Assembly: GCA_964534625.1 (NCBI GenBank)
Contig: CAZHRF010000014.1
Span: 32,809-48,722, forward strand
From: an uncultured archaeon
Lineage (GTDB): Archaea > Asgardarchaeota > Heimdallarchaeia > Heimdallarchaeales > Heimdallarchaeaceae
Reading direction: 5' to 3'
Length of the DNA stretch: 15,914 nucleotides
Shown: positions 1,778 through 15,325 of the stretch, one piece after another
Layout of the letters: each line of letters starts with the position of its first letter
How positions within the stretch are numbered: the first letter of the stretch is position 1
Notes under the pieces: generated by a model
The model's database searches: none
Told to the model about the DNA's origin: nothing
The model's input: only the letters and a program-made list of their open reading frames with translations
Position numbers and translations under genes: made by a program

Positions 1778-3247
1778 TTACTTATCTTCTTCATTAAAAG
1801 AAGATTTATACCAATCTATAACATTTTGAACGCCTCTAGCGAGTTCTCCAGTTTCATCTTGTCTACTTGTCAGATTTTTATCTACATATATATCATCTAG
1901 AGCGCTTAAAGGATCTTCTGATACAGATGATATTGAAAGTTTATTGACGACATCTTTCAATCTCTCGATAGGTTGTACCAGGTAATTAGCGACCAATACT
2001 CCAACAATAATTGATGTTACTGCTGTAATTACAATAATTAGGATTATTTGGTTTCTTGAAGCTATTTGAGTCTCAGACATCCTTTCTTGTAAAGGTTCCA
2101 ATGCGTCCAATGCCTCACTTTCGGGGACAATGATGAGACTAATGTATTGACCTAAACCTACTGGTTGATACGCCAAATAATATCTCTCATTATTCTTTTC
2201 GAATTGAGTTACACCTATTGCTCCACTCGTAATTTCACTGATTTGACTACTTGATAAAGCAGATGAATTATCATCATTTATTTCTATTTGATCAATGGTC
2301 TTGAAGTCAACTTCTCCTAATTCGGGTATGCTATCTTTATGAGCAATCACAAGACTTGAAGAAGTTATTAGAGCAGCATAACCTGTCTCAAGAACTTCTA
2401 CATTTAATATTTCATCAACAATATCCTGAATAGTGATATCACCACAAATTACTCCTAGGAAATCGCCATTTGGTTTTGTAACTACTCTCCCTATTGTAAT
2501 CAAAGGCACACCATCTATCTCGTCAAAATACGGTTCAGTAAAGACTATTTCACCTTCGCCTTCTAAAACTTCTTCATACCATTCTTCATCGACAGCGACA
2601 TAGGGATCATCTATTCTGTCTTGAAGTGTTCCACCCACTATACTACCTGGATAGTTTACAAAAAGTGTCGTATCAGCTACAGGAATCGCCGCGTATAACC
2701 ATCTAAATTCAGGCATATTCAAATGAATGTATTGGAATATATAATCCATATTGGCTACAGTTTGAATTGTCTGATTTAGTTCTTCGCTTTGCACTTGATA
2801 ATTTAAGTGGGTTGAGCCATCAAAGTAATAGCTTGCATAATTCCATGAAACATTTATTTGGTAACTAGGGTCATAAACTAGATCAGCTGGTACTAAGGAA
2901 GGCTCTGGATCAAATTCTTCGAAGAAATAATCGTAATATGCTTGACGGTAGTCATAACGATTATCTTCGGAAAATAGCATTTCCATTTCATTAGCCATCA
3001 TCTTGACCATCGATTCAGCATTTTTGAACTTTTGTTGAATAATTTCAGCGTTCCCCTCTGATGTAAGAAGTATGTTTCTTTGAATTTGAGTCTGTAACGC
3101 ATCAGTACTTTCTGTTATGGTGGTATCACTTACATTACCAACAAATGCAAAAGAGATCAACCCAATAGCAATCATAGCCAATAGGGTGAATAAAATAAAA
3201 CTTCCAATGATACTTGATTTTATACTTCGTTTTTTAATTACTTGCAT
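1778..3247 (-). CDS. Membrane receptor TM-dCache_1-TM-HAMP with no cytoplasmic output domain
   Basis: N-terminal TM. Cache motifs EEWY..FTEPYFD..LITIGR..GVICGDI and TGYAALI..VIAH..YLAYQPV. Second TM (IILIIVITAVTSIIVGVLVA), then HAMP (QPIERLKDVVNKL...DETGELARGVQNVI) and a stop about 11 aa later. ATG 3247 has a GAGGTG SD just upstream. The ORF track uses GTG 3256. Confidence 0.88.
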   Translation of the reverse strand: MQVIKKRSIKSSIIGSFILFTLLAMIAIGLISFAFVGNVSDTTITESTDALQTQIQRNILLTSEGNAEIIQQKFKNAESMVKMMANEMEMLFSEDNRYDYRQAYYDYFFEEFDPEPSLVPADLVYDPSYQINVSWNYASYYFDGSTHLNYQVQSEELNQTIQTVANMDYIFQYIHLNMPEFRWLYAAIPVADTTLFVNYPGSIVGGTLQDRIDDPYVAVDEEWYEEVLEGEGEIVFTEPYFDEIDGVPLITIGRVVTKPNGDFLGVICGDITIQDIVDEILNVEVLETGYAALITSSSLVIAHKDSIPELGEVDFKTIDQIEINDDNSSALSSSQISEITSGAIGVTQFEKNNERYYLAYQPVGLGQYISLIIVPESEALDALEPLQERMSETQIASRNQIILIIVITAVTSIIVGVLVANYLVQPIERLKDVVNKLSISSVSEDPLSALDDIYVDKNLTSRQDETGELARGVQNVIDWYKSSFNEEDK

Positions 3248-3258
3248 TTTTTCCACCT

Positions 3259-6021
3259 CTAATATTCGTTCTCAAAGTCAACACCTTCAACATCGACTTG
3301 GGATAGCATCTCCCTAACTTGATGAAAAGCATTTTGTATTGCTCTGTGGGCACTACCTGGTTGGTGTATGGGGATATATTTTCCTCTTGGTGCTTCTTTG
3401 GTAAGTCGAATAATTTTATTTTCAATTCTTCGCAGACCTCTACCAACACCTATAACTATTAAGTTAATGTTAAGAAAACTCTCCGATATTAGTTTCTGAA
3501 TAGATTTATCTTTGATACCTAATAAACTACTGAGTAAGCCTTGAGATCGTTGGGTTATGTTGTAGCGTCTACTTGAGTTGTCTTCACCATCAGTAAGAGC
3601 TATAATCCACCGTTGCTCATTACCTGTTCTATTTGCTAAGATATTGAAAGCATCACCTAACGCATCATAAAATGATGTTGCACCGTGCGGATTACGTAAG
3701 CGATTAATTTTATTGGTAATTTTGTCTCTATTTTCTTCAACAGGGGTTAAATCTAAAACAACACGACTATATGTATCAAAGGTGATTATACCCACTTCAT
3801 CTTGTGGATTAATTTGGGTATTGAAAACAGATAAAGCTCCTTCTACAGCGGCATCAATTCTTTTTCCTTGCATAGAGCCACTATAGTCGATAACAAAGAA
3901 TACTAATTTTTTATCAAAACTTCTCCGTTTCAATTCGTTATACATCGATTCGTAAAGTCTTACTTTTTTGATATCAGATCTAGCTTTAAACACAGCAACC
4001 AAATTTGAGAGTGATTGCTTAACTATGTTAACATTACGGATATCTTTTCCTATGGCTAGAGATTGTTCTAGGAATTTTTCTGCTTCATCATAATTTTTGA
4101 TATTTAGATAATATACACCAATATTGAGTTTAGATATAGCTATACCTCTCTCAAAACCTATATTTTCAGCTAAAGCTAAAGATTCAGAGAACATACGATA
4201 GGCAAATTTAACTTCTCCTTTTTGGAGATACATCAGACCTAGGTTGTTTTTATGAATAACGTTTCCTTGGCTGTTGTTAGATCTTTGATCGTATTGTAAC
4301 GCTAATTCAATATGATTCTTAGCTAATTGGAATTGACCTCTATCAAGCATTAACAAGCCTAAATTGTTGTATCTTGATGCCAATCCCACATAGTCATTCA
4401 TTTGTTTACCAATTTCAATCGATTCTAAATAGAGTTGTTCAGCTTTTTGAAACTCTTTTCTTGCCCTGTGCACATTAGCTAGATTGTTTTTTGTTAGAGC
4501 AATCCCACGTAAATTGTTAGTGGTTTTGAATAATTCTAAAGCTTTAACATAATTATTATAGGCCCTGTGTAGATCTCCGCGATAATAATCTTTGTTACCA
4601 TACCTAAGACTAGTTAAAAGGTTATCAAACGTGGAATGGAATACAGCTAATTCTCTGGGCAAAACATCTTTATCTTTAAAATCTCTTGATAAATCACCAT
4701 TTGCAACAAGATTAGCCATTTTTGTCACATCTTTTATAGGTTTAACAATGCGATTTGAATTTAAGAGTCCTAAGAAAATAATTAGTATAATCGCCACGAT
4801 TAAAATGACAAGCATAATAAGAACTTGTTGAACCGTTGCTCTAGATATAGTGTCTCTAATAGCCATGGCAGGGGCAATGATATTAGATTCTGGGACTACT
4901 AATGCCAAACTATATTTTGTTGTAGGCACAGGAGCATAACAGATGTACCAGTCAACACCATTTTTGGTATATTTCTCTGTACCTCGCTGTCCACTAGTCA
5001 TTTTATTCACTATGCTGTTAAATTGATTTAGCTCTTGGGTGTCATCACCTATTTCAAGAGCTGTTATTGTCTCAAATTCTTCACCTAAATCAGGGTGCAT
5101 GATAGTTGACCCTTCTTCGTCTACTAAGAAAGCATACCCATCATCCAATACTTGAATATTAAGAATCTCTTGTTTTAACGTGAGAATTGTGATATCAATA
5201 CCAACCATACCAATTAATGTACCATTGTTAAAATGAATAGGACGTCCCATACTTATTATGAGACCAATAGGGTCATAATATGGGGCTGTAAAAGCGGTTG
5301 AATCATCTTCTATATTAATGGCATTGATATAAAATTCTTCATCTTGAGGATTCCAGTCGTCATTAGGATCAACTGGATTATCTTCTTCGTCGAATTGTGT
5401 CCATTCCATTGAATCATACGGATAATTCCTGAACAATGAGTAATCGCCTTCAAAAGATGCATATATCCAAACAAAGTTGGGATTAGCTTCGTGCATGTTT
5501 TGAAACATATAATCTAAATTTGAAGAAACATTCAATAAATAGCCCAAATCAGAAGGCCAGGTAAATGGATCATTATTGGGAATCTTATTTCTTGGCATGT
5601 AGTATGCTGAAACATCAAAAGATATTTGGTCAGATTCATATAAGTCTACATATTCTTGACCTGGAATAGTACGACCCGTAGCATCAAATTCAGCATCTGC
5701 ATTCCACCAATAAGAATGATAATTTGAAATGTTTATTTCGCCATTAAATAGCGCTTCTGCATATATATCCAACATAGTAACTTGGTAAATAGATTGTAAG
5801 AACACTTGATTAATTCTTTCAGCTTGGTTTGTGACCGTACGGTTCAGTTGAGCTAACTCTTCTTCCAATAGTGCAAGGGAAGAATCATCAGCATTCTGAT
5901 CAGAAAGGATAATCAATCTTCGAGTAACAAGTATACCAAGAATAGCAGATGGAATTAATAAGAGCAGAAGCATAAATAATAATATTTTTCCTCTAATTGA
6001 CATCTTATTTGTAGAAAACAT
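3259..6021 (-). CDS. Membrane receptor TM-dCache_1-TM-HAMP-TPR array-vWA (MIDAS)
   Basis: TM1 at aa ~13-33. Cache motifs FTAPYYD..GMVGIDI and GYAFLVD..TIMHP..YAPVPTTKYSLALVVP. TM2 at ~4762-4824, then HAMP (KPIKDVTKMANLVANGDL..ELAVFHSTFDNL). About 5-6 TPRs of ~40 aa with NNLA/NNLG motifs. vWA with IDYSGS, GATSFYDAL and LTDGEDN. Alternative ATG at 6003. Confidence 0.92.
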   Translation of the reverse strand: MFSTNKMSIRGKILLFMLLLLLIPSAILGILVTRRLIILSDQNADDSSLALLEEELAQLNRTVTNQAERINQVFLQSIYQVTMLDIYAEALFNGEINISNYHSYWWNADAEFDATGRTIPGQEYVDLYESDQISFDVSAYYMPRNKIPNNDPFTWPSDLGYLLNVSSNLDYMFQNMHEANPNFVWIYASFEGDYSLFRNYPYDSMEWTQFDEEDNPVDPNDDWNPQDEEFYINAINIEDDSTAFTAPYYDPIGLIISMGRPIHFNNGTLIGMVGIDITILTLKQEILNIQVLDDGYAFLVDEEGSTIMHPDLGEEFETITALEIGDDTQELNQFNSIVNKMTSGQRGTEKYTKNGVDWYICYAPVPTTKYSLALVVPESNIIAPAMAIRDTISRATVQQVLIMLVILIVAIILIIFLGLLNSNRIVKPIKDVTKMANLVANGDLSRDFKDKDVLPRELAVFHSTFDNLLTSLRYGNKDYYRGDLHRAYNNYVKALELFKTTNNLRGIALTKNNLANVHRARKEFQKAEQLYLESIEIGKQMNDYVGLASRYNNLGLLMLDRGQFQLAKNHIELALQYDQRSNNSQGNVIHKNNLGLMYLQKGEVKFAYRMFSESLALAENIGFERGIAISKLNIGVYYLNIKNYDEAEKFLEQSLAIGKDIRNVNIVKQSLSNLVAVFKARSDIKKVRLYESMYNELKRRSFDKKLVFFVIDYSGSMQGKRIDAAVEGALSVFNTQINPQDEVGIITFDTYSRVVLDLTPVEENRDKITNKINRLRNPHGATSFYDALGDAFNILANRTGNEQRWIIALTDGEDNSSRRYNITQRSQGLLSSLLGIKDKSIQKLISESFLNINLIVIGVGRGLRRIENKIIRLTKEAPRGKYIPIHQPGSAHRAIQNAFHQVREMLSQVDVEGVDFENEY

Positions 6022-6074
6022 CTTCTATCATCTCGTAGAAAAAGTTGTAATCACATAAAATTTTGTTATACTCA

Positions 6075-6082
6075 TATATTAA
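6075..6082 (-). promoter_or_regulatory. Putative TATA box (TTAATATA) for the receptor operon
   Basis: AT-rich TATA-like octamer about 55 nt upstream of ATG 6021, in the divergent intergenic region. Confidence 0.35.
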
Positions 6083-6201
6083 TGTTGGTAAACGAGAATG
6101 AAGAATAATTAAGAATTTATCTTGATTGCCAAAGTAAAGTAAGTGACACAATCTATTCAAAAGATTTACATTTTGGAATAAAATCAAGTGTATCCCCCCA
6201 C

Positions 6202-6209
6202 TATAAATA
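6202..6209 (+). promoter_or_regulatory. Putative TATA box (TATAAATA) for the speA-RING operon
   Basis: TATA-like octamer about 70 nt upstream of the speA ATG at 6280. Confidence 0.4.
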
Positions 6210-6279
6210 GAAACAAATAAGTAAGACAATGTTTTATTCACCATAACGGGATAAACAGAATATCTTGTTGGTGTCAAAA

Positions 6280-8163
6280 ATGGAATGGACTTTAGATGAT
6301 TCACGTGTGGTTTATGGTGTGGCGAAAAACGATTTATATTTTTTAGATATTAACAACAAAGGCGATTTAGAATTAAATATCAATAATCACAAAATAACTT
6401 TTCAAGAAATTAATAGAATACTTGGAGAAAAAATAAAAGAAGAAGGTTACACAAGAGTTCCTTCCTACACTATGAGAATCCCCCAGCTAATAAAGAATCA
6501 AGTTAACAAATTATATGGTCTATTTCAAAATGAGATGCAAGCTTATGACTATAAAGGAAATTTTAGAGCTGTTTATCCCATAAAAGTAAATTCAATGAAA
6601 AGTGTTATTGAAACAATAAAAGATTCCCATCCATTATATCTTTTAGAAGCAGGAACGAAGACAGAGTTTATTTTGTTATTGAAATCTATAAAAAATGAAA
6701 AACATAGGACAATTTTTTGTAACGGGGTTAAAGACAAACAATACTTAAATATTGCAAAACAAGCTATGGAAGACGGGTATAAAGTTATTCTAAGTATTGA
6801 ATCAATTGCTGAACTACTTTTAGCATTAGACCTTTTACCTATAGATAAAATGCAAATAGCTTTACGAATAAAACCATATGCTACGGTAGGTGGTCGGTGG
6901 AAAACTTCATCGGGCAGATATAGCAAATTTGGTTTATCTATTTATGAATATCTTGAAATTCTTAAAATACTTGAACAGAAAAAATGTAAACATATTCTTG
7001 TTGCTACTCACTCACATGCTGGATCTCAAATTTCCGATTTAGAAGGAGTAAAAAATTATGCTTCATATATTGTTGATAGATATATTGAGTTACATAATAG
7101 AGGATTTACAAATCTATCTATCATTAATTTTGGGGGAGGCTTTCCAATCAACTATGATAATGATTTAAGCGAAAGTATTATTGAAAACTATGTGAGCATA
7201 CTAGTAAGAACTATTAAAGATAAATTGAAAAATGTGCATATCAAAGAACCAACCATAATGGTTGAAGCTGGGCGCTTTGTTACAGCTCAATCTGCTATTA
7301 TTATAGTCCAAACTCAAGATGTTTGGCCTATTTTTCCTCCTGCTACCGATGATTTGTATATTGAACATATGCACAAAATTGAACAAATTGATAACCCCAA
7401 AGAACTGTTAAAACTTTGGAAAGAAATCGAAGAAATAGATTGTGTGAAAGATGCTGAAAATATAGAAAAAACAGAAATGATTCGAGGAATAACCAAACAA
7501 CTTATCAGGAAAAAACTAGCCCAATTATTATCTAAATCCCAATACAACTTAATTGAGTTTGAAGAAGAATTACGCAAAATTAAACGGGAAATTTTTTCAG
7601 CTGATTATCTATTGTTAGGTAATTTTTCTGTTTTCAATAGCATTTGTGATCATGTACTTGTTAATCAATATTTCCCTTTGATGCCCATAACCAATCTCCA
7701 TAAACAGCCAGATACGATAGTTAGACTCATTGATTTAACTTGTGATAGCGATGGGGAAGTGTCCGTATATAAACAACAAAAAGGAGATAAGCTTCTTTTT
7801 ACATTTGATGGTTTCCCTTTAACAAGAACCAGTGACCGAGCTAGACTACTTAAAGGCATTCCTGTGGGGAGCCTTAATGAAATCGCGCATAGTTATGTCG
7901 CTATTCCCTTGGCTGGGGCATATCAAGATATCATTGAGTTTGATCATAATCTCATTGGGGACCTTGCTGACGTGGAAGTTAAAATTGGAGAGGATGGCCA
8001 GTGGTCAGTTGAATTGATTAATTTTGCTCAAAACATAGGTGAGCTCCTAACAGACGTTGGCTATAGTAAAGAGTATGCTGATAATCCCTATTTATCCTTA
8101 GATACGAGTCCAATAATTAACCGATTACGCTTAAACTTTAGGCATAATAAGGAGGAGAACTAA
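6280..8163 (+). CDS. speA: PLP-dependent (fold type III) biosynthetic arginine decarboxylase, bacterial SpeA type
   Basis: SpeA motifs in the expected order: YPIKVN (PLP Lys), LEAGTKTE, CNGVKD, SSGRYSKFGL, HSHAGSQI, NFGGGF, EAGRF, NFSVF..QYFPLMPI, DLTCDSDG, GAYQD..HNL. ATG 6280 (MEWT..) is preferred over TTG 6265. Confidence 0.88.
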   Translation: MEWTLDDSRVVYGVAKNDLYFLDINNKGDLELNINNHKITFQEINRILGEKIKEEGYTRVPSYTMRIPQLIKNQVNKLYGLFQNEMQAYDYKGNFRAVYPIKVNSMKSVIETIKDSHPLYLLEAGTKTEFILLLKSIKNEKHRTIFCNGVKDKQYLNIAKQAMEDGYKVILSIESIAELLLALDLLPIDKMQIALRIKPYATVGGRWKTSSGRYSKFGLSIYEYLEILKILEQKKCKHILVATHSHAGSQISDLEGVKNYASYIVDRYIELHNRGFTNLSIINFGGGFPINYDNDLSESIIENYVSILVRTIKDKLKNVHIKEPTIMVEAGRFVTAQSAIIIVQTQDVWPIFPPATDDLYIEHMHKIEQIDNPKELLKLWKEIEEIDCVKDAENIEKTEMIRGITKQLIRKKLAQLLSKSQYNLIEFEEELRKIKREIFSADYLLLGNFSVFNSICDHVLVNQYFPLMPITNLHKQPDTIVRLIDLTCDSDGEVSVYKQQKGDKLLFTFDGFPLTRTSDRARLLKGIPVGSLNEIAHSYVAIPLAGAYQDIIEFDHNLIGDLADVEVKIGEDGQWSVELINFAQNIGELLTDVGYSKEYADNPYLSLDTSPIINRLRLNFRHNKEEN

Positions 8164-8982
8164 TTGTGGAGAAAAAGAAAGAAAAGTAAAAATGATGATA
8201 AGCCAAATTATACAAGAGATAGAAAAGAGATTATTAATAGTTTAGAAAAAAATGGTTTTACTATAACAAAGATAATCGATTACGGGAGCAATTTTGGAAT
8301 AATAAGGGCGGAAAAAAGCGATTCGAGAATGCAAATAAGTACCTATGAAAAATTTGTTAATGATCATACAGAATTATATTTGGCGTTTGTTATACATACT
8401 GAACAGGTAAATAAAACAAATTTTAAACTGGTGCAACGAGAAGAAACTTCAGCTGATGCTGTGCCCAAGGCTTTTGATGATAGATTAGATATTATAAGTT
8501 TTGAAAGTCGAAATATAATAGATCAACTTCTACTTAACACCTCTAAAGGGGTAAAAGAAGGATTAAATAGTATTAAACCGCATCTAGAATATTTTACTCT
8601 TTCTGGTACTCAGATGGTGATAGAGTTGGGAGTGAAATATAACCTTACTACAGCCTTAGATGCTTTGAAATTCTTGTCCAATTTCCTAAATGTGATAAAA
8701 ACTCAATATAGCAAATTATTGGTCTTTTCTGGTGAAAAAAAATACATGTGTGTCTATTGCAGAAAAGAAATACCCCTTGAAGGAAAAACGTGCCCTCATT
8801 GTGGTAAAAAAGCCCCCATATGTGTTATCTGTAAAGTAGATCCTGAACCAGGGGAGGCAATAATACAATACGAGTGTTGTAACGCTTATGCACATTTAGA
8901 ACACGCTTTAAAATGGAAAGAAGTATCAGATATTTGTCCAAGTTGTAAAACTCGTGAGCCAAAGTTTAATAGGGTCGTATAA
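8164..8982 (+). CDS. Zinc-ribbon plus RING-finger-like protein (putative E3 ligase-like)
   Basis: C-terminal CVYC-x10-CPHC ribbon, followed by CVIC...CCNAYAHLEH..W..CPSC, a RING-H2-like pattern with the conserved Trp and Pro. The TTG start abuts the speA TAA, with a GGAGGAG SD at 8151-8157. Confidence 0.8.
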   Translation: MWRKRKKSKNDDKPNYTRDRKEIINSLEKNGFTITKIIDYGSNFGIIRAEKSDSRMQISTYEKFVNDHTELYLAFVIHTEQVNKTNFKLVQREETSADAVPKAFDDRLDIISFESRNIIDQLLLNTSKGVKEGLNSIKPHLEYFTLSGTQMVIELGVKYNLTTALDALKFLSNFLNVIKTQYSKLLVFSGEKKYMCVYCRKEIPLEGKTCPHCGKKAPICVICKVDPEPGEAIIQYECCNAYAHLEHALKWKEVSDICPSCKTREPKFNRVV

Positions 8983-9470: not shown

Positions 9471-9500
9471 GAAAGAGAAAAAAAGATTTCTTTCATTTTT
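9471..9500. terminator. Bidirectional A/T-tract terminator between convergent genes
   Basis: GAAAGAGAAAAAAAGATTTCTTTCATTTTT lies between the stops at 9470 (+) and 9500 (-), giving T tracts on both strands. Confidence 0.45.
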
Positions 9501-11413
9501 TAATGAGATATAAGTAAATCTTTTCCTTTATATTCTCCTTCACCTTTGACTGTATAGGTTATTTCTACTTCTTGTTCTTCTTCAATAGTTGGGATAACCC
9601 ATTCTCTTATTTCTCCTTCATCTATTGTATCAATTACTTCAGATTCAATGGTTACCTCTTCTTCTTCAGTTTCAGGAATATTTACTTCGACATCCATTAA
9701 TTCAAATCCACTTGGAATAAGATCTTTAATAGAAACATCTTCAAGTTTTGTATTGCTTCTGTTCTTATAATAAAGCATAACTTGGTACATTCCTTCTTCC
9801 TCCATAGGTGTAACATCTTTGAATGCTGTGTATCTCCGTCTAACATGTACAATATTGAATTCGAGAATTGTATCCTCAATAGGAATATCTAAGGTAGGAG
9901 CAGGTTCTACTAATGTAGCATGAGCCATGGGTTCTGTCTCAAATTCCATTTCTGCAGGTGGGCCAGTAAGAATAGAAGTGTATTTTAAGTGAATCTGATC
10001 ATTAGGTTCAATCAACTGACTTATAGTACATACGAGATATTTTTTCTTATCTATGTCTGCACCACTAGGTTCAATTGAAAGTTCATAATCATCTGGATCA
10101 AGCTCTGTTTCTGAACCATCTTCTTTTATATGGATTACATTAACTTCTTCAAACTCGGGAGGTGCAAAGTACTCAGCAAGATGATCTCTTATGGTTAATT
10201 CTTCAAATCCAACGCTACCTTTGTTGGTAACAGTAGTTGTAACATCAACTGGAGAATTGCGGAAACTTGCAAATTTAGTTTCACTGTAACTCTTTTCACC
10301 GGTAGCATAAGCAACAGAAAGTTCGGTTTCTTCGACTTGAACATCACCAGATATTTTTGCTATAATTTCAGGTTTAACAGTATACCCTTCAACTTTTTTG
10401 AAATGAGGGAGATCTTCGCTTTCTGTCTGCCAAATTTCAGATTTCCATTTTTGTCCGCTTTCAATGATTATTTCATTAGCTTCAAAATATTCCTCGATAA
10501 TTTTTTCATCTTCAAAGGATATCTCAATCTGTCTTAATTCTATGGGAAATTCAGACGTATTCTCTATGATCAGGCTAGAATCCCACATATTTGGCTTTTC
10601 TTCTTCTTCATCAGAATCTATCCAGATTCTAGTACGAACAAAAGCATCAGCACCTGTCACAGAAAGTAAAGTTGAGCCCTTGCCTTCACCAGAATAAGTT
10701 ATGGTTATATTTCCAGTTGGTTTCTTATCTATCTCTTGTACATCATACTCACCACGTATAACTAAAGTCGCGAAAGTATCAGCATCAACATCAGCAATAT
10801 CCCAATATACCTTACCATCTTCGGTTCTAGATTCACCTAATGAAGTGGAGCTAATATCAATATTTTCCATACCAGAAGGTAAATCTTTTACTAGATGTAT
10901 TTCATTAATAGAACGTTCAAAATCAAACTCTAAAGTAATATCAGCAATAGCCCGATGACCATATACAAGTACTGAGGAAGTTTCGTCTTCTTCAGCTGCT
11001 GTATTAATAGTTTCTTTAAAAATAAACGGGAGATCTTCTTTTTCTACTTCTTTAACTGCATATGATTGCTCAAACAGCTCTTGTGGATTAAGATCATTTA
11101 TATAGAGATGGTCATCAAATTCATCAAAGTAATCGACATTTTCAAGTGCAACATCAACATCAAACAACACATCTTCTTCACCTAAGTTCTGAACAGAAAA
11201 ATAACCTTTTTTATCAATATTAAGTATATCCCAATCCCGGGAAAATTTACCGTTGATTTTTTCATCAATTGTAATAGTTAAACCATCCTCACTAGCCTCG
11301 TCTCTGTATACAGAATCTGTTCGCCAATCGTCAGAAGAGTCCATTTCATGCTGTTTTTTTTCCTCTTCTTTTTCTTTTTCATCTTTACGTCTTCGTCCAA
11401 ACAATTTATTCAC
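9500..11413 (-). CDS. Large acidic multi-beta-sandwich protein with mu-homology (delta-COP/AP-mu)-like N-terminal part and DUF11-like Ig modules
   Basis: 637 aa, GTG start, no signal peptide or TM. Repeated module V-x-V-x-N...I-x-D-x-L/I-P-x-G/F...W-x-I...E-x-x-I-x-Y. The N-terminal ITIDEKINGKFSRDW..G resembles the start of a mu-homology domain. Confidence 0.8.
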   Translation of the reverse strand: MNKLFGRRRKDEKEKEEEKKQHEMDSSDDWRTDSVYRDEASEDGLTITIDEKINGKFSRDWDILNIDKKGYFSVQNLGEEDVLFDVDVALENVDYFDEFDDHLYINDLNPQELFEQSYAVKEVEKEDLPFIFKETINTAAEEDETSSVLVYGHRAIADITLEFDFERSINEIHLVKDLPSGMENIDISSTSLGESRTEDGKVYWDIADVDADTFATLVIRGEYDVQEIDKKPTGNITITYSGEGKGSTLLSVTGADAFVRTRIWIDSDEEEEKPNMWDSSLIIENTSEFPIELRQIEISFEDEKIIEEYFEANEIIIESGQKWKSEIWQTESEDLPHFKKVEGYTVKPEIIAKISGDVQVEETELSVAYATGEKSYSETKFASFRNSPVDVTTTVTNKGSVGFEELTIRDHLAEYFAPPEFEEVNVIHIKEDGSETELDPDDYELSIEPSGADIDKKKYLVCTISQLIEPNDQIHLKYTSILTGPPAEMEFETEPMAHATLVEPAPTLDIPIEDTILEFNIVHVRRRYTAFKDVTPMEEEGMYQVMLYYKNRSNTKLEDVSIKDLIPSGFELMDVEVNIPETEEEEVTIESEVIDTIDEGEIREWVIPTIEEEQEVEITYTVKGEGEYKGKDLLISH

Positions 11414-11743: not shown

Positions 11744-12058
11744 ATGTCAATTGAAGGATTAAAGATCCCAGGCGAGATTCATACTGTTGAAGGTAAAAAA
11801 AAGGATAAAGAAATTATGTTATTTACTATTAGTACCTGTCAATGGTGTCGTAAGGGAAAGAAATGGTTACAAGATAATGACTATACGTATTACTATTGTG
11901 ATATAGATAAATTAGATTTTGAAGATAAAACTAAACTCAAACAAGAATTAAAAGAGAGATTCAAGTCTAGGGTGGCTTTTCCATTTATAGTGGTAGATAA
12001 AGAACTATTTAATGTAGGATACAATCCCGAAGAGTGGAAGCAAATAATTGAAAAGTAA
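11744..12058 (+). CDS. Glutaredoxin/NrdH-like redoxin
   Basis: LFTISTCQWCRKGK CxxC motif, cis-Pro motif AFPFIVV, and GYNPEEW. Confidence 0.9.
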   Translation: MSIEGLKIPGEIHTVEGKKKDKEIMLFTISTCQWCRKGKKWLQDNDYTYYYCDIDKLDFEDKTKLKQELKERFKSRVAFPFIVVDKELFNVGYNPEEWKQIIEK

Positions 12059-12076
12059 ATAAAGAGGTCTTATATA

Positions 12077-12433
12077 ATGTCTGATACCAATAAAACTTTT
12101 GATGATGTCAAGGAATATGTAACAAGAGTGGCAAAAACAAGAGGATGGAAATTACATCCTAATCATGATAACACATTAGATATGCTTATAGAAGGATTAA
12201 GAGATTATTTTAATGCGGTTGGTTATTATAATTGCCCATGCAGAGATTCAAATAGAGATAGGAAAAAGGATCGTGATATCATGTGCCCATGCGATTATGC
12301 AGAGCCAGATATTGAAGAATATGGGAGATGTTATTGCGCATTGTTTTTTGATCCTGACTTTGATTTCGACGAAAAAACGATAGGGATGATACCTGAAAGA
12401 AGACCAATTGAAAAAGAGGCAGGATTTGAATGA
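12077..12433 (+). CDS. Ferredoxin:thioredoxin reductase catalytic (beta) subunit family protein
   Basis: Diagnostic CPCR...CPC...CYC motifs (4Fe-4S ligands plus redox disulfide). GAGG SD upstream. Apparently co-transcribed with the glutaredoxin. Confidence 0.92.
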   Translation: MSDTNKTFDDVKEYVTRVAKTRGWKLHPNHDNTLDMLIEGLRDYFNAVGYYNCPCRDSNRDRKKDRDIMCPCDYAEPDIEEYGRCYCALFFDPDFDFDEKTIGMIPERRPIEKEAGFE

Positions 12434-13978: not shown

Positions 13979-15325
13979 GTGAATGAAAAAATACGCACTT
14001 TAATCAATTCTAGCTGTAAAATGACAATATCTACCAGTGGAGTAAAAAATCCTTCTATACAGAGGTTTAGCTATGTAAGAAAAAAGAAGAAATTATACAT
14101 AGCCAGCGTAGAAAATTCTAAAACTGCTCAACAAATCACATATTTTCCTCACGTTGAAATAATTATAGGCGGAGTTGAAACATATCTAAAGATAGAAGGA
14201 AGAGCCAGAGTAGTTAAAGATAATAAGGACGATAAAAAAGAAATTTTAAAAGATTTGAAGAATAAAGATCAATTAGAAGATCTAGGGATCTATTCTGTTG
14301 TATTAATCGAGATAATTCCAGTAAAAATTTATTTACCCAAAGAAGAAATCCTAGAAATATATGAAGAAAATACTCTCTCTTATATAAAGGAAGCACTCTT
14401 ATCTTTGCAATCTTCACTTAAACTTTTCTTGAAGAGTATAGGCTTACCTTTTTTATCTGCAAGTGGTCTCGCAGTTATAGTAGGAGCAAGTACAGCATAC
14501 TATGAAACAGGTTTTTTTAACTGGTATTTATTCATTTTAACATTATTGGGGATACTTCTGATTCACTCAGGCGTAGATTCAACTAATGACGTCTATGATC
14601 ATTTGAGTGGAACAGATGATATAAACAAACAAGTTACTCCTTTTTCCGCTGGAACTCAAGTGATTCAAGGGGGGCTTTATACAACATCACGGATGCTTAT
14701 TCAAGGATTAGTGTTATTTTTTTTAGGTGCAATCATTGGACTAATTATTAATTTCAGTATTCCAGGAAATACTGTTTTGTTTCTTGGAATAGGGGGTATT
14801 TTCCTAGGGTTCTTTTATGTTGCATTTCCCATTAAATATGCGTATAGAAGCTTGGGTGAAATAGGGTTGTTTCTAGGTTTTGGACCTTTAACTGTCTATG
14901 GAGCATATTATGTTCAGAATCATAGTTGGTCATTGCGCCCGTTATTACTTTCAGTTAATGTGGGACTACTAATCTATAGTACATTATTTATCAATGAATT
15001 CCCAGATGTGGAAGCAGATCTTTATGCAAAAAAGTATACCTGGGTAGTTAAGTTGGGAAAAAATAAAAGCAAGATTATTTATTCAATTGGAGTAGGGATA
15101 GTTTATCTGTTGCATGCAATATTTATAATTTTGAATTTTTTACCTGTCTTAGCTGTTTTTTGTTATCTTTCTCTCCCTATTGCATTAAAAGCAATGATTA
15201 TTACAATTAAGCATAGTGACAATTTTAAGATTATGCTGGGAGCACAAACATTGACTATTCTTACAATGATTGTGTACACCGCATTATTGTCTTTAATACT
15301 GATTATAAGCCGCCTTTTTGCGTAA
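13979..15325 (+). CDS. menA: MenA-like UbiA-family prenyltransferase with N-terminal pyridoxamine-5'-phosphate-oxidase-like split-barrel domain
   Basis: UbiA/MenA Asp-rich motifs NDVYDHLSGTD and NEFPDVEADLYAKKYT, plus YAYRSLGE, GFGPL and about 9 TM. The N-terminal ~125 aa (TISTS..P..LYIAS..S.TAQQI..PHVEI..IEGRARVV..LIEIIP) look like an FMN-binding split barrel. Confidence 0.82.
   Translation: MNEKIRTLINSSCKMTISTSGVKNPSIQRFSYVRKKKKLYIASVENSKTAQQITYFPHVEIIIGGVETYLKIEGRARVVKDNKDDKKEILKDLKNKDQLEDLGIYSVVLIEIIPVKIYLPKEEILEIYEENTLSYIKEALLSLQSSLKLFLKSIGLPFLSASGLAVIVGASTAYYETGFFNWYLFILTLLGILLIHSGVDSTNDVYDHLSGTDDINKQVTPFSAGTQVIQGGLYTTSRMLIQGLVLFFLGAIIGLIINFSIPGNTVLFLGIGGIFLGFFYVAFPIKYAYRSLGEIGLFLGFGPLTVYGAYYVQNHSWSLRPLLLSVNVGLLIYSTLFINEFPDVEADLYAKKYTWVVKLGKNKSKIIYSIGVGIVYLLHAIFIILNFLPVLAVFCYLSLPIALKAMIITIKHSDNFKIMLGAQTLTILTMIVYTALLSLILIISRLFA

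Follow-up and report, generated by a model that had tools for sequence, protein, structure and literature searches.

Receptors in which a Cache domain is joined to a HAMP linker have kinases, chemotaxis adaptors, cyclases or phosphatases as their known outputs. The eukaryotic proteins alpha2delta, the target of gabapentin, and CACHD1 are wholly extracellular and carry a VWA domain within their first dCache_1 domain, which is split into an N-terminal part, VWA_N, and a part that follows the VWA. A published analysis, in which Asgard archaea are unmentioned, places this insertion at about the time of the last eukaryotic common ancestor and derives the eukaryotic dCache_1 domain from bacteria (PMC8915833). 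Here we analyse an archaeal stretch of DNA in which a relative of these eukaryotic proteins had been predicted from the letters alone. The window, by which we mean the whole stretch of 15,914 nt (about 32% G+C), belongs to an Asgard (Heimdall-group) metagenome-assembled genome of 3.37 Mb that is 90% complete, in agreement with the archaeal host that had been supposed. An open reading frame (ORF) on its minus strand encodes a 920-aa protein with both a Cache and a VWA domain, and it was the N-terminal half of the membrane-distal PAS-like module of the Cache domain, the stretch under study, that had been likened to alpha2delta. We find that this protein belongs to an undescribed family of enzyme-free receptors present in Asgard archaea and some protists. 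It is probably one of two subunits, the long one, of an Asgard transmembrane receptor that has no enzyme domain and is encoded by two genes, and a homologue of alpha2delta at the level of a Cache subgroup.

Domain organisation of the long protein

The stretch under study had been placed at positions 5330-5720, which is 1-2 nt away from the in-frame interval 5332-5721 (residues 101-230); the stretch itself is real, and every motif quoted from it is found in the ORF, namely YWWNA (residues 104-108), QISFDVSAYYMP (132-143), LNVSSNLDYMF (163-173), FRNYP (197-201) and DWNPQDEEFYI (222-232). Pfam recognises dCache_1 (9e-20), TPR_12 in three stretches (6e-23) and VWA_2 (4e-18) in the protein. The dCache_1 match (PF02743) reaches 71.6 bits against a cut-off of 45 and recurs in 75 of 75 family members, and the HAMP match (PF00672; 16.6 bits, E 0.01) falls under the cut-off of 25 but rises to 26.9 bits in the relative P0144. 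The AlphaFold2 (AF2) model of the ectodomain, with a predicted local distance difference test (pLDDT) score of 92.4, is a double PAS-like fold upon a 58-residue stalk helix, and that of the cytoplasmic part (pLDDT 85.4) consists of two HAMP helices with a connector, twelve paired TPR helices and a Rossmann-like VWA. The metal-ion-dependent adhesion site (MIDAS) of the VWA is intact (D712-x-S714-x-S716, T782 and D812) and invariant or nearly so across 60 relatives, while the TPR array matches the peptide-binding TPRs of LGN/Pins and kinesin light chain in a Foldseek search. The positive residues that flank the transmembrane (TM) helices would place the Cache domain outside the cell and HAMP, TPR and VWA inside it. 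The proposal of a VWA in the same chain on the cytoplasmic side therefore agrees with the Pfam order, in which VWA_2 follows TM2, HAMP and TPR, and with the topology predicted from the sequence.

The closest described receptors with solved structures are the dCache_1 sensors PctA/B/C, Mlp24, Mlp37 and a Methanosarcina mazei histidine kinase (5ltx, 6iop, 5ave, 3li8 and 3lib). In common with them the 920-aa protein has the double PAS-like fold with a long stalk helix, two flanking TM helices followed by a HAMP-like linker, and equivalents of the pocket residues Y129, Y144 and D173 (PctA numbering), the agreement amounting to Z scores of 19-21, root-mean-square deviations of 2.5-3.4 Å and profile scores of 64-74 bits. 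It differs from them in that its ectodomain is about 100 residues longer, the arginine that binds a ligand carboxylate is a glutamate, the output consists of TPR and VWA rather than a methyl-accepting chemotaxis protein, kinase, cyclase or phosphatase domain, and the protein comes in a long/short gene pair. Unlike known Cache-HAMP outputs, the part inside the cell has only protein-docking domains.

A long and a short receptor gene

The short gene begins 2 nt past the stop codon of the long gene, on the same strand, and encodes a paralogue in which an equivalent of the studied stretch had been seen; the motifs VSWNYASYY, ANMDYIF, PEFRWLY and FVNYPG are indeed all present. The best PDB match of the paralogue is the amine-type Methanosarcina domain 3li8. 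The long-then-short gene order is kept in five other genomes, and across two taxonomic families of the order. At the three loci inspected at base level (the window, L003 and L006) the two genes are 2-12 nt apart, and 28-52 nt lie between match ends at the remaining loci surveyed. A model of the complex between residues 1-475 of the long protein and the short subunit scored 0.77, compared with 0.02 for the best of three controls, and so passed a mark that 58 of 80 solved complexes, but only 2 of 110 mismatched pairs, attain. At least 88% of contacts are common to its runs, the partner pLDDT is at least 81, and the modelled interface follows TM1 and the stalk, TM2 and HAMP.

From the gene pairing and this model we infer that the long and short subunits form a heterodimer in vivo, which would be held together by contacts between their stalk helices, their TM helices and their HAMP linkers. 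Cache receptors are usually homodimers, however, and the two proteins might instead be independent homodimeric receptors that are merely co-transcribed, with the short form acting as a decoy or signalling via another protein. Two properties of the complex model tell against the heterodimer and in favour of this alternative: it does not separate a heterodimer from two homodimers, and, dimers of Cache receptors having already been solved, its pass may reflect a likeness to these rather than a property of this particular pair. Independent homodimers are nevertheless unlikely, although they are the most credible of the alternatives considered here. Two families of the order have kept the long gene closely followed by the short one, and the pair is also adjacent, though divergent, on a large non-Asgard contig that possibly belongs to a giant virus. 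The short form has no output domain of its own, and the short forms make up a single old clade in the Cache tree described below (support 100/99).

In the heterodimeric receptor the signal would pass through TM2 and HAMP and reposition the cytoplasmic arm of TPR and VWA, whose MIDAS and TPR groove could then recruit or release a partner protein. No candidate partner gene for this putative output step is conserved within the window, and a kinase, a MoxR ATPase, a phosphatase and the other usual partners of VWA proteins are all absent from it.

Four metagenomic proteins of 1146-1598 aa (P0204, P0249, P0208 and P0172) have two Cache domains per chain. A C-terminal VWA is added in P0204 and P0249, and P0172 has no VWA in Pfam; all four may represent fusions of the short and long subunits.

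The ligand pocket and the arginine decarboxylase gene

The amino-acid motif of dCache_1 sensors (AA_motif, in PctA numbering) reads Y121-x4-R126-x-W128-Y129, then Y144 and then D173 (PMC8915833; Gumerov et al. 2022). In amino-acid sensors Y121, R126 and W128 grip the carboxylate of the ligand and Y144 and D173 its amino group (PMC8915833), whereas in amine sensors that arginine is not conserved and D173 is (PMC10589655). Alignments of the 920-aa protein to Mlp24 and PctA show W, E and F at the positions of Y121, R126 and W128, with Y129 kept; the protein reads W-x4-E-x-F-Y and so departs from the motif of dCache_1AA domains, and the equivalents of Y144 and D173 are retained. In the two traits compared, loss of the arginine and retention of D173, it agrees with amine sensors, a class named dCache_1AM (Cerna-Vargas et al. 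2023). At the same three positions Y, E and W stand in the paralogue and in the family consensus, which reads Y-x4-E-x-W-Y.

The divergent neighbour of the long gene encodes a SpeA-like biosynthetic arginine decarboxylase that matches NCBIfam PRK05354 over its full length (6e-105; 352 bits, just below the curated cut-off of 369). An arginine decarboxylase gene adjoins the receptor pair in all five genomes whose contigs permit the check (the window's own, G002, G020, G028 and G030). In the last four it lies directly downstream of the short gene and on the same strand, and in the window it is divergent from the pair; the neighbourhood has been kept through rearrangement. Because the arginine is replaced by glutamate in both subunits, the residues for the amino group are kept and an arginine decarboxylase is adjacent, a small cationic ligand may bind the distal pocket, with agmatine and polyamines as candidate amines. 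We put forward a cationic amine such as agmatine as the preferred ligand only tentatively, and it counts against the idea that it draws on one charge change and a gene neighbourhood. The conserved link to an arginine decarboxylase does make it a directly testable ligand hypothesis.

The alternative that the receptor is a canonical amino-acid sensor of the dCache_1AA type, binding L-amino acids as PctA, Mlp24 and alpha2delta do, could draw on several observations, since the amino-acid sensors Mlp24, Mlp37 and PctA-C are its best bacterial matches, the equivalents of Y129, Y144 and D173 are conserved, and both the protist member P0137 and a VWA-inserted Asgard family described below retain the full YDPRxRxWY motif. 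We regard it as improbable, because the 920-aa protein has lost all three carboxylate-binding residues, because the glutamate is found at the arginine position in the paralogue and the family consensus as well, and because the replaced arginine is the residue that binds the carboxylate (PMC8915833) and that amine sensors do not conserve (PMC10589655).

Likeness to alpha2delta and CACHD1

A family profile built from 75 orthologous ectodomains aligns over its positions 55-213 to residues 106-249 of alpha2delta-1, the VWA_N region, with ISF paired to ISY, LNxSSxLDxxF to LNWTSALDEVF, FRNYP to ARYYP and DYDP..WY to YDVRRRPWY. The alpha2delta pattern that had been drawn up for the stretch is thereby recovered with the same pairing, albeit with a marginal score (15.9 bits, independent E 0.04, conditional E 2e-7), and a second colinear stretch of alpha2delta-1, after the VWA, gives 49.7 bits. 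The ectodomain as a single sequence reaches 45 bits with CACHD1 and 35 bits with alpha2delta-1, the matched part lying after the VWA, and the studied stretch alone is colinear with CACHD1 but not significant (-2.6 bits). When the ectodomain model is used in Foldseek, the comparison suggested at the outset, alpha2delta-1 is ranked first (E 5e-14, template-modelling score 0.65-0.67); VIA-align gives Z scores of 19-22 for alpha2delta, tied with solved bacterial and archaeal dCache_1 sensor domains. True homology thus links the stretch to VWA_N, the first part of the divided dCache_1 domain in alpha2delta and CACHD1.

The first dCache_1 of alpha2delta-1 and CACHD1 (8fd7, 7mix, 8x90 and 8s7c) accordingly has a homologous distal module, with a common N-terminal element (SYY, IS..S.YY.P, N.SS.LD..F and FRNYP). 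Beyond this module the proteins part company. The 920-aa protein has no VWA after the WY motif, its Cache domain being uninterrupted over residues 34-398, and it lacks the amino-acid motif, a second dCache_1 and the VGCC_alpha2 region (PF08473), neither of the last two being matched by Pfam in the protein, which has one Cache domain only. Its VWA stands instead at residues 704-905, after TM2, HAMP and TPR, at the C-terminus of the chain, where it is predicted to be cytoplasmic, and belongs to a different VWA lineage.

The likeness is also shared by ordinary sensors. We used two of these as controls, P0088 with a histidine-kinase output and P0083 with a SpoIIE phosphatase output. P0088 scores 62 bits with CACHD1 and 52 with alpha2delta-1, and P0083 44 and 42, compared with 45 and 35 for the 920-aa protein. 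In alignments the N-terminal element (SYY.., IS..S.Y..P and N.S..LD..F) is also found in the short paralogues and the VWA-inserted family, and in shortened form in both control sensors. Similarity to the Pfam VWA_N profile (PF08399), which has a gathering threshold of 34.7 bits, did not materialise: there is no match at E<=10 for the ectodomain, for residues 95-240 or for the paralogue, and 11 of the 75 relatives match weakly, with a best E of 0.0018. Other prokaryotic Cache proteins with a canonical YDPRxRPWY score higher than the family of the 920-aa protein, at 28-40 bits and in some cases at 38-40 bits. Against the PDB, the family profile gives 87.5 bits for CACHD1 summed over two Cache domains, of which the best single stretch contributes 56.3, and 70.6 bits in one stretch for Mlp24 (6iop). 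The scores of alpha2delta and CACHD1 with the family profile are 74-87 bits, lower than those of all the 150 nearest representatives, each of which lies above 130 bits.

The VWA domain points in the same direction. Its best solved relative is the VWA of CLCA1 (9e-9), and alpha2delta is not among its solved-structure matches at E<0.01. With a profile of the VWA of the long family, alpha2delta scores 27-29 bits and bacterial VIT/CLCA-like VWAs 36-50 bits. On sequence, then, the VWA is no closer to that of alpha2delta than generic VWAs are.

A tree of the distal Cache module (IQ-TREE, C20 posterior mean site frequency (PMSF) model), built from 74 rows and 207 columns after removal of the VWA where it splits the domain, places the long family and two eukaryote sequences on one side of a branch with 98/97 support and alpha2delta, itself on a very long branch (2.27), on the other side. 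The polytomy in which alpha2delta lies there also contains the short paralogues, the VWA-inserted family (100/100) and enzyme-output sensors. Insect alpha2delta-3 sequences were used in part only, their long inserts having broken the profile alignment. Approximately unbiased (AU) tests rejected neither a clade of alpha2delta with the long family (difference in log-likelihood 3.53, p 0.356) nor one of alpha2delta with the VWA-inserted family (2.74, p 0.319), and about 200 columns therefore cannot place the long alpha2delta branch. As regards the two outcomes that had been named in advance as contrary to the original prediction, we found no VWA_N likeness above that of ordinary sensors, but the family does not fall among bacterial sensors and instead forms an Asgard-plus-eukaryote clade of its own in both the Cache tree and a full-length tree.

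We conclude that the likeness is homology at the level of a dCache_1 subgroup that is related to amino-acid sensors and also includes ordinary sensors with kinase and phosphatase outputs, and that the 920-aa protein is most probably a cousin of the alpha2delta module rather than a rearranged form of it. Three observations weigh on the other side: alpha2delta aligns over 289-322 residues of the model (22-23% identity) as opposed to 213-261 for the solved bacterial domains, the AU test leaves alpha2delta and the long family as a permissible clade, and both control sensors come from metagenomes. To these may be added that CACHD1 and alpha2delta-1 are among the top PDB matches both by sequence profile and by Foldseek, and that FRNYP and other motifs are common to starfish alpha2delta-3. 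The relationship originally predicted, a specific archaeal relative of alpha2delta and CACHD1 in which two ancestral modules lie in one chain and the vWA has moved to the cytoplasm, is even so very improbable, given that ordinary sensors match the eukaryotic proteins equally well or better, that Pfam VWA_N misses the protein, that its amino-acid motif is broken (Arg to Glu), that its VWA is not specifically related to theirs, and that a separate Asgard family with the VWA at the identical junction coexists with the long family in G020, G022, G028 and G030.

An Asgard family with the VWA inserted at the alpha2delta junction

A search started from a representative with a VWA-split dCache_1 found 22 Asgard proteins of 570-630 aa (P0268-P0289), whose names include Heimdall B3_Heim (e.g. 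CEE45_10555), Hodarchaeales, Kariarchaeaceae, Thor- and Promethearchaeota. Like the 920-aa protein these are Asgard membrane proteins with a related, enlarged dCache_1, and they score 40-58 plus 30-80 bits against the long-family profile. Unlike it, they have a VWA at the junction used in alpha2delta and a canonical amino-acid motif, their consensus YDPRxRPWYvGAvTGakD running directly into the MIDAS. The same junction in alpha2delta-1 reads YDVRRRPWYIQGAASPKD and is followed by the MIDAS of that protein. A profile of the VWA-inserted family finds CACHD1 (7e-44) and alpha2delta-1 (2e-36), each in one colinear stretch that spans VWA_N, the VWA and the Cache part. By the insertion site that they have in common, alpha2delta is linked to this family and not to the 920-aa protein; the VWA-inserted family is the real archaeal counterpart of alpha2delta, and it is a distinct, paralogous family.

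The VWA-inserted family is present in 7 of 31 relatives searched, four of which also have the long/short pair. It was not found in the 90% complete genome of the window, where there are only weak Cache matches to the two receptor genes, or in 18 genomes of the same taxonomic family. The origin of the gabapentin-target module becomes a sharper question in the light of these proteins, since the VWA insertion dated to the last eukaryotic common ancestor (PMC8915833) is carried by an Asgard family different from that of the 920-aa protein.

Two further proteins have a second complete dCache_1. In P0141 (L007:1416-4397; 993 aa), on a compact prokaryote-like contig, it accompanies a VWA-inserted dCache_1; P0148 (L008:2619-5210) likewise has both Cache domains but no VWA, and the sigma-70 gene beside it suggests that its contig is bacterial.

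Distribution of the long family

Full-length relatives of the 920-aa protein form about 80 clusters of 880-960 aa, after which only partial matches to other proteins follow, and an exhaustive profile search returned 172 representatives at E<1e-30. The named clusters are from Heimdall-, Hod-, Thor-, Loki- and Hermodarchaeota, with one record labelled Zixibacteria. By cluster look-up, four of the 172 representatives proved to be eukaryotic EukProt records: Platysulcus tardus, Stygiella incarcerata, Andalucia godoyi and one unnamed transcriptome. That of Andalucia (ANDGO_00932) is a genome-based gene model and the other three are from transcriptomes. A word-index search with the Platysulcus protein gave no close relatives, the other eukaryote members having come through the exhaustive profile search and the cluster look-ups. 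The alignment of the 920-aa protein with those of Andalucia (E 2e-75) and Platysulcus (E 9e-68) extends from the first TM helix through the whole VWA, with 24-25% identity; the Stygiella protein too can be aligned over its full length, and the protist proteins have the same Pfam order and the same MIDAS. The Cache-HAMP-TPR-vWA layout that the original prediction attributed to protists is therefore correct. The protist proteins fall in the same clade as the 920-aa protein, from which the Platysulcus protein differs in having kept the canonical arginine motif.

In a full-length tree, obtained by a quick search on 45 rows and 887 columns, the four eukaryote sequences lie outside the clade of named Asgard sequences, which has a Shimodaira-Hasegawa-like approximate likelihood ratio (SH-aLRT) support of 100, in a poorly supported zone beside a probable viral group. 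Two contigs that carry long-family members are of an unusual kind. The P0187 contig (JGI 3300072015, 130 kb) has many ORFans, an intein-bearing UDP-glucose dehydrogenase and large glycosyltransferases, and on it a short Cache gene adjoins the long one and is divergently transcribed; in the second, L013, the neighbours are zf-MYND and XPA_C genes. Neither is prokaryote-like, and we would guess that both are candidate giant-virus or eukaryote-associated DNA.

Full-length relatives were found in Asgard archaea, on giant-virus-like contigs and in a small number of deep-branching protists, and nowhere else, a pattern typical of candidate eukaryotic signature proteins. One possibility, which we consider doubtful, is that the long/short receptor descends from a signalling system common to Asgard archaea and early eukaryotes, with survivors in jakobids, in a basal stramenopile and probably in giant viruses, and that the eukaryotic Cache/VWA proteins, alpha2delta included, are archaeal in origin. 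If true, shared descent of the receptor together with the VWA-inserted family would argue for an archaeal and not, as proposed so far, a bacterial origin of the eukaryotic Cache/VWA proteins. A literature search of incomplete coverage yielded no paper joining Asgard archaea with dCache or alpha2delta, and none on the dCache_1-HAMP-TPR-VWA layout.

Features and other genes of the window

The features of the receptor locus and the loci of the VWA-inserted family are collected in Table 1.

Table 1. Positions of receptor features and neighbouring genes in the window, and of two VWA-inserted loci elsewhere.
Feature	Position	Strand	Basis
Long receptor subunit, 920 aa: TM1, dCache_1, TM2, HAMP, TPR, VWA	3259..6021	-	ORF, translation, Pfam
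TM1, residues 13-33, with K/R-rich (cytoplasmic) N-terminus ahead	5923..5985	-	Hydrophobic run; positive-inside rule
Enlarged extracellular dCache_1 ectodomain, residues 34-398	4828..5922	-	AF2 model, Foldseek, VIA
N-terminal half of membrane-distal module of ectodomain, residues 101-230, VWA_N equivalent	5332..5721	-	Motifs, family-profile alignment
Degenerate amino-acid-motif segment DWNPQDEEFYI	5326..5358	-	Alignments to Mlp24, PctA
TM2, residues 399-420, within predicted dimer interface	4762..4827	-	Hydrophobic run; complex model
HAMP-like linker, residues 421-475	4597..4761	-	Weak Pfam HAMP; AF2 helix-connector-helix
TPR array, about six repeats, residues 480-690	3952..4584	-	Pfam TPR_12; modelled helices; Foldseek
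Predicted cytoplasmic VWA with MIDAS, residues 704-905	3307..3912	-	Pfam VWA_2/VWA; motif positions
Short subunit, 492 aa: TM, dCache_1, TM, HAMP, no output domain	1778..3256	-	ORF, Pfam
SpeA-like biosynthetic arginine decarboxylase, divergent neighbour of long gene	6265..8163	+	NCBIfam PRK05354
VWA-inserted locus in G025	L011:1501-3222		
VWA-inserted locus in G030	L012:1501-3192		

A 99-aa ORF at 6005-6304 (-), which overlaps the start of the long gene, has no family match, shows no similarity to the ORF at the corresponding site of L006 and is unlikely to be a gene. Beyond the decarboxylase gene a 272-aa ORF (8164-8982, +) begins on the base after the decarboxylase stop codon; it has no NCBIfam match and only a weak C-terminal RING-finger match (E 0.008, below the cut-off). 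A very acidic protein of 637 aa (9500-11413, -) gives weak matches to DUF11 and to the MG10-like domain of bacterial alpha-2-macroglobulin, and may be a surface protein of beta-sandwich repeats. At 11744-12433 (+) a glutaredoxin-like gene lies beside a gene for the catalytic beta chain of ferredoxin-thioredoxin reductase, and a 448-aa ORF at 13979-15325 (+) combines an N-terminal pyridoxamine-5'-phosphate-oxidase-like domain with a UbiA prenyltransferase domain.

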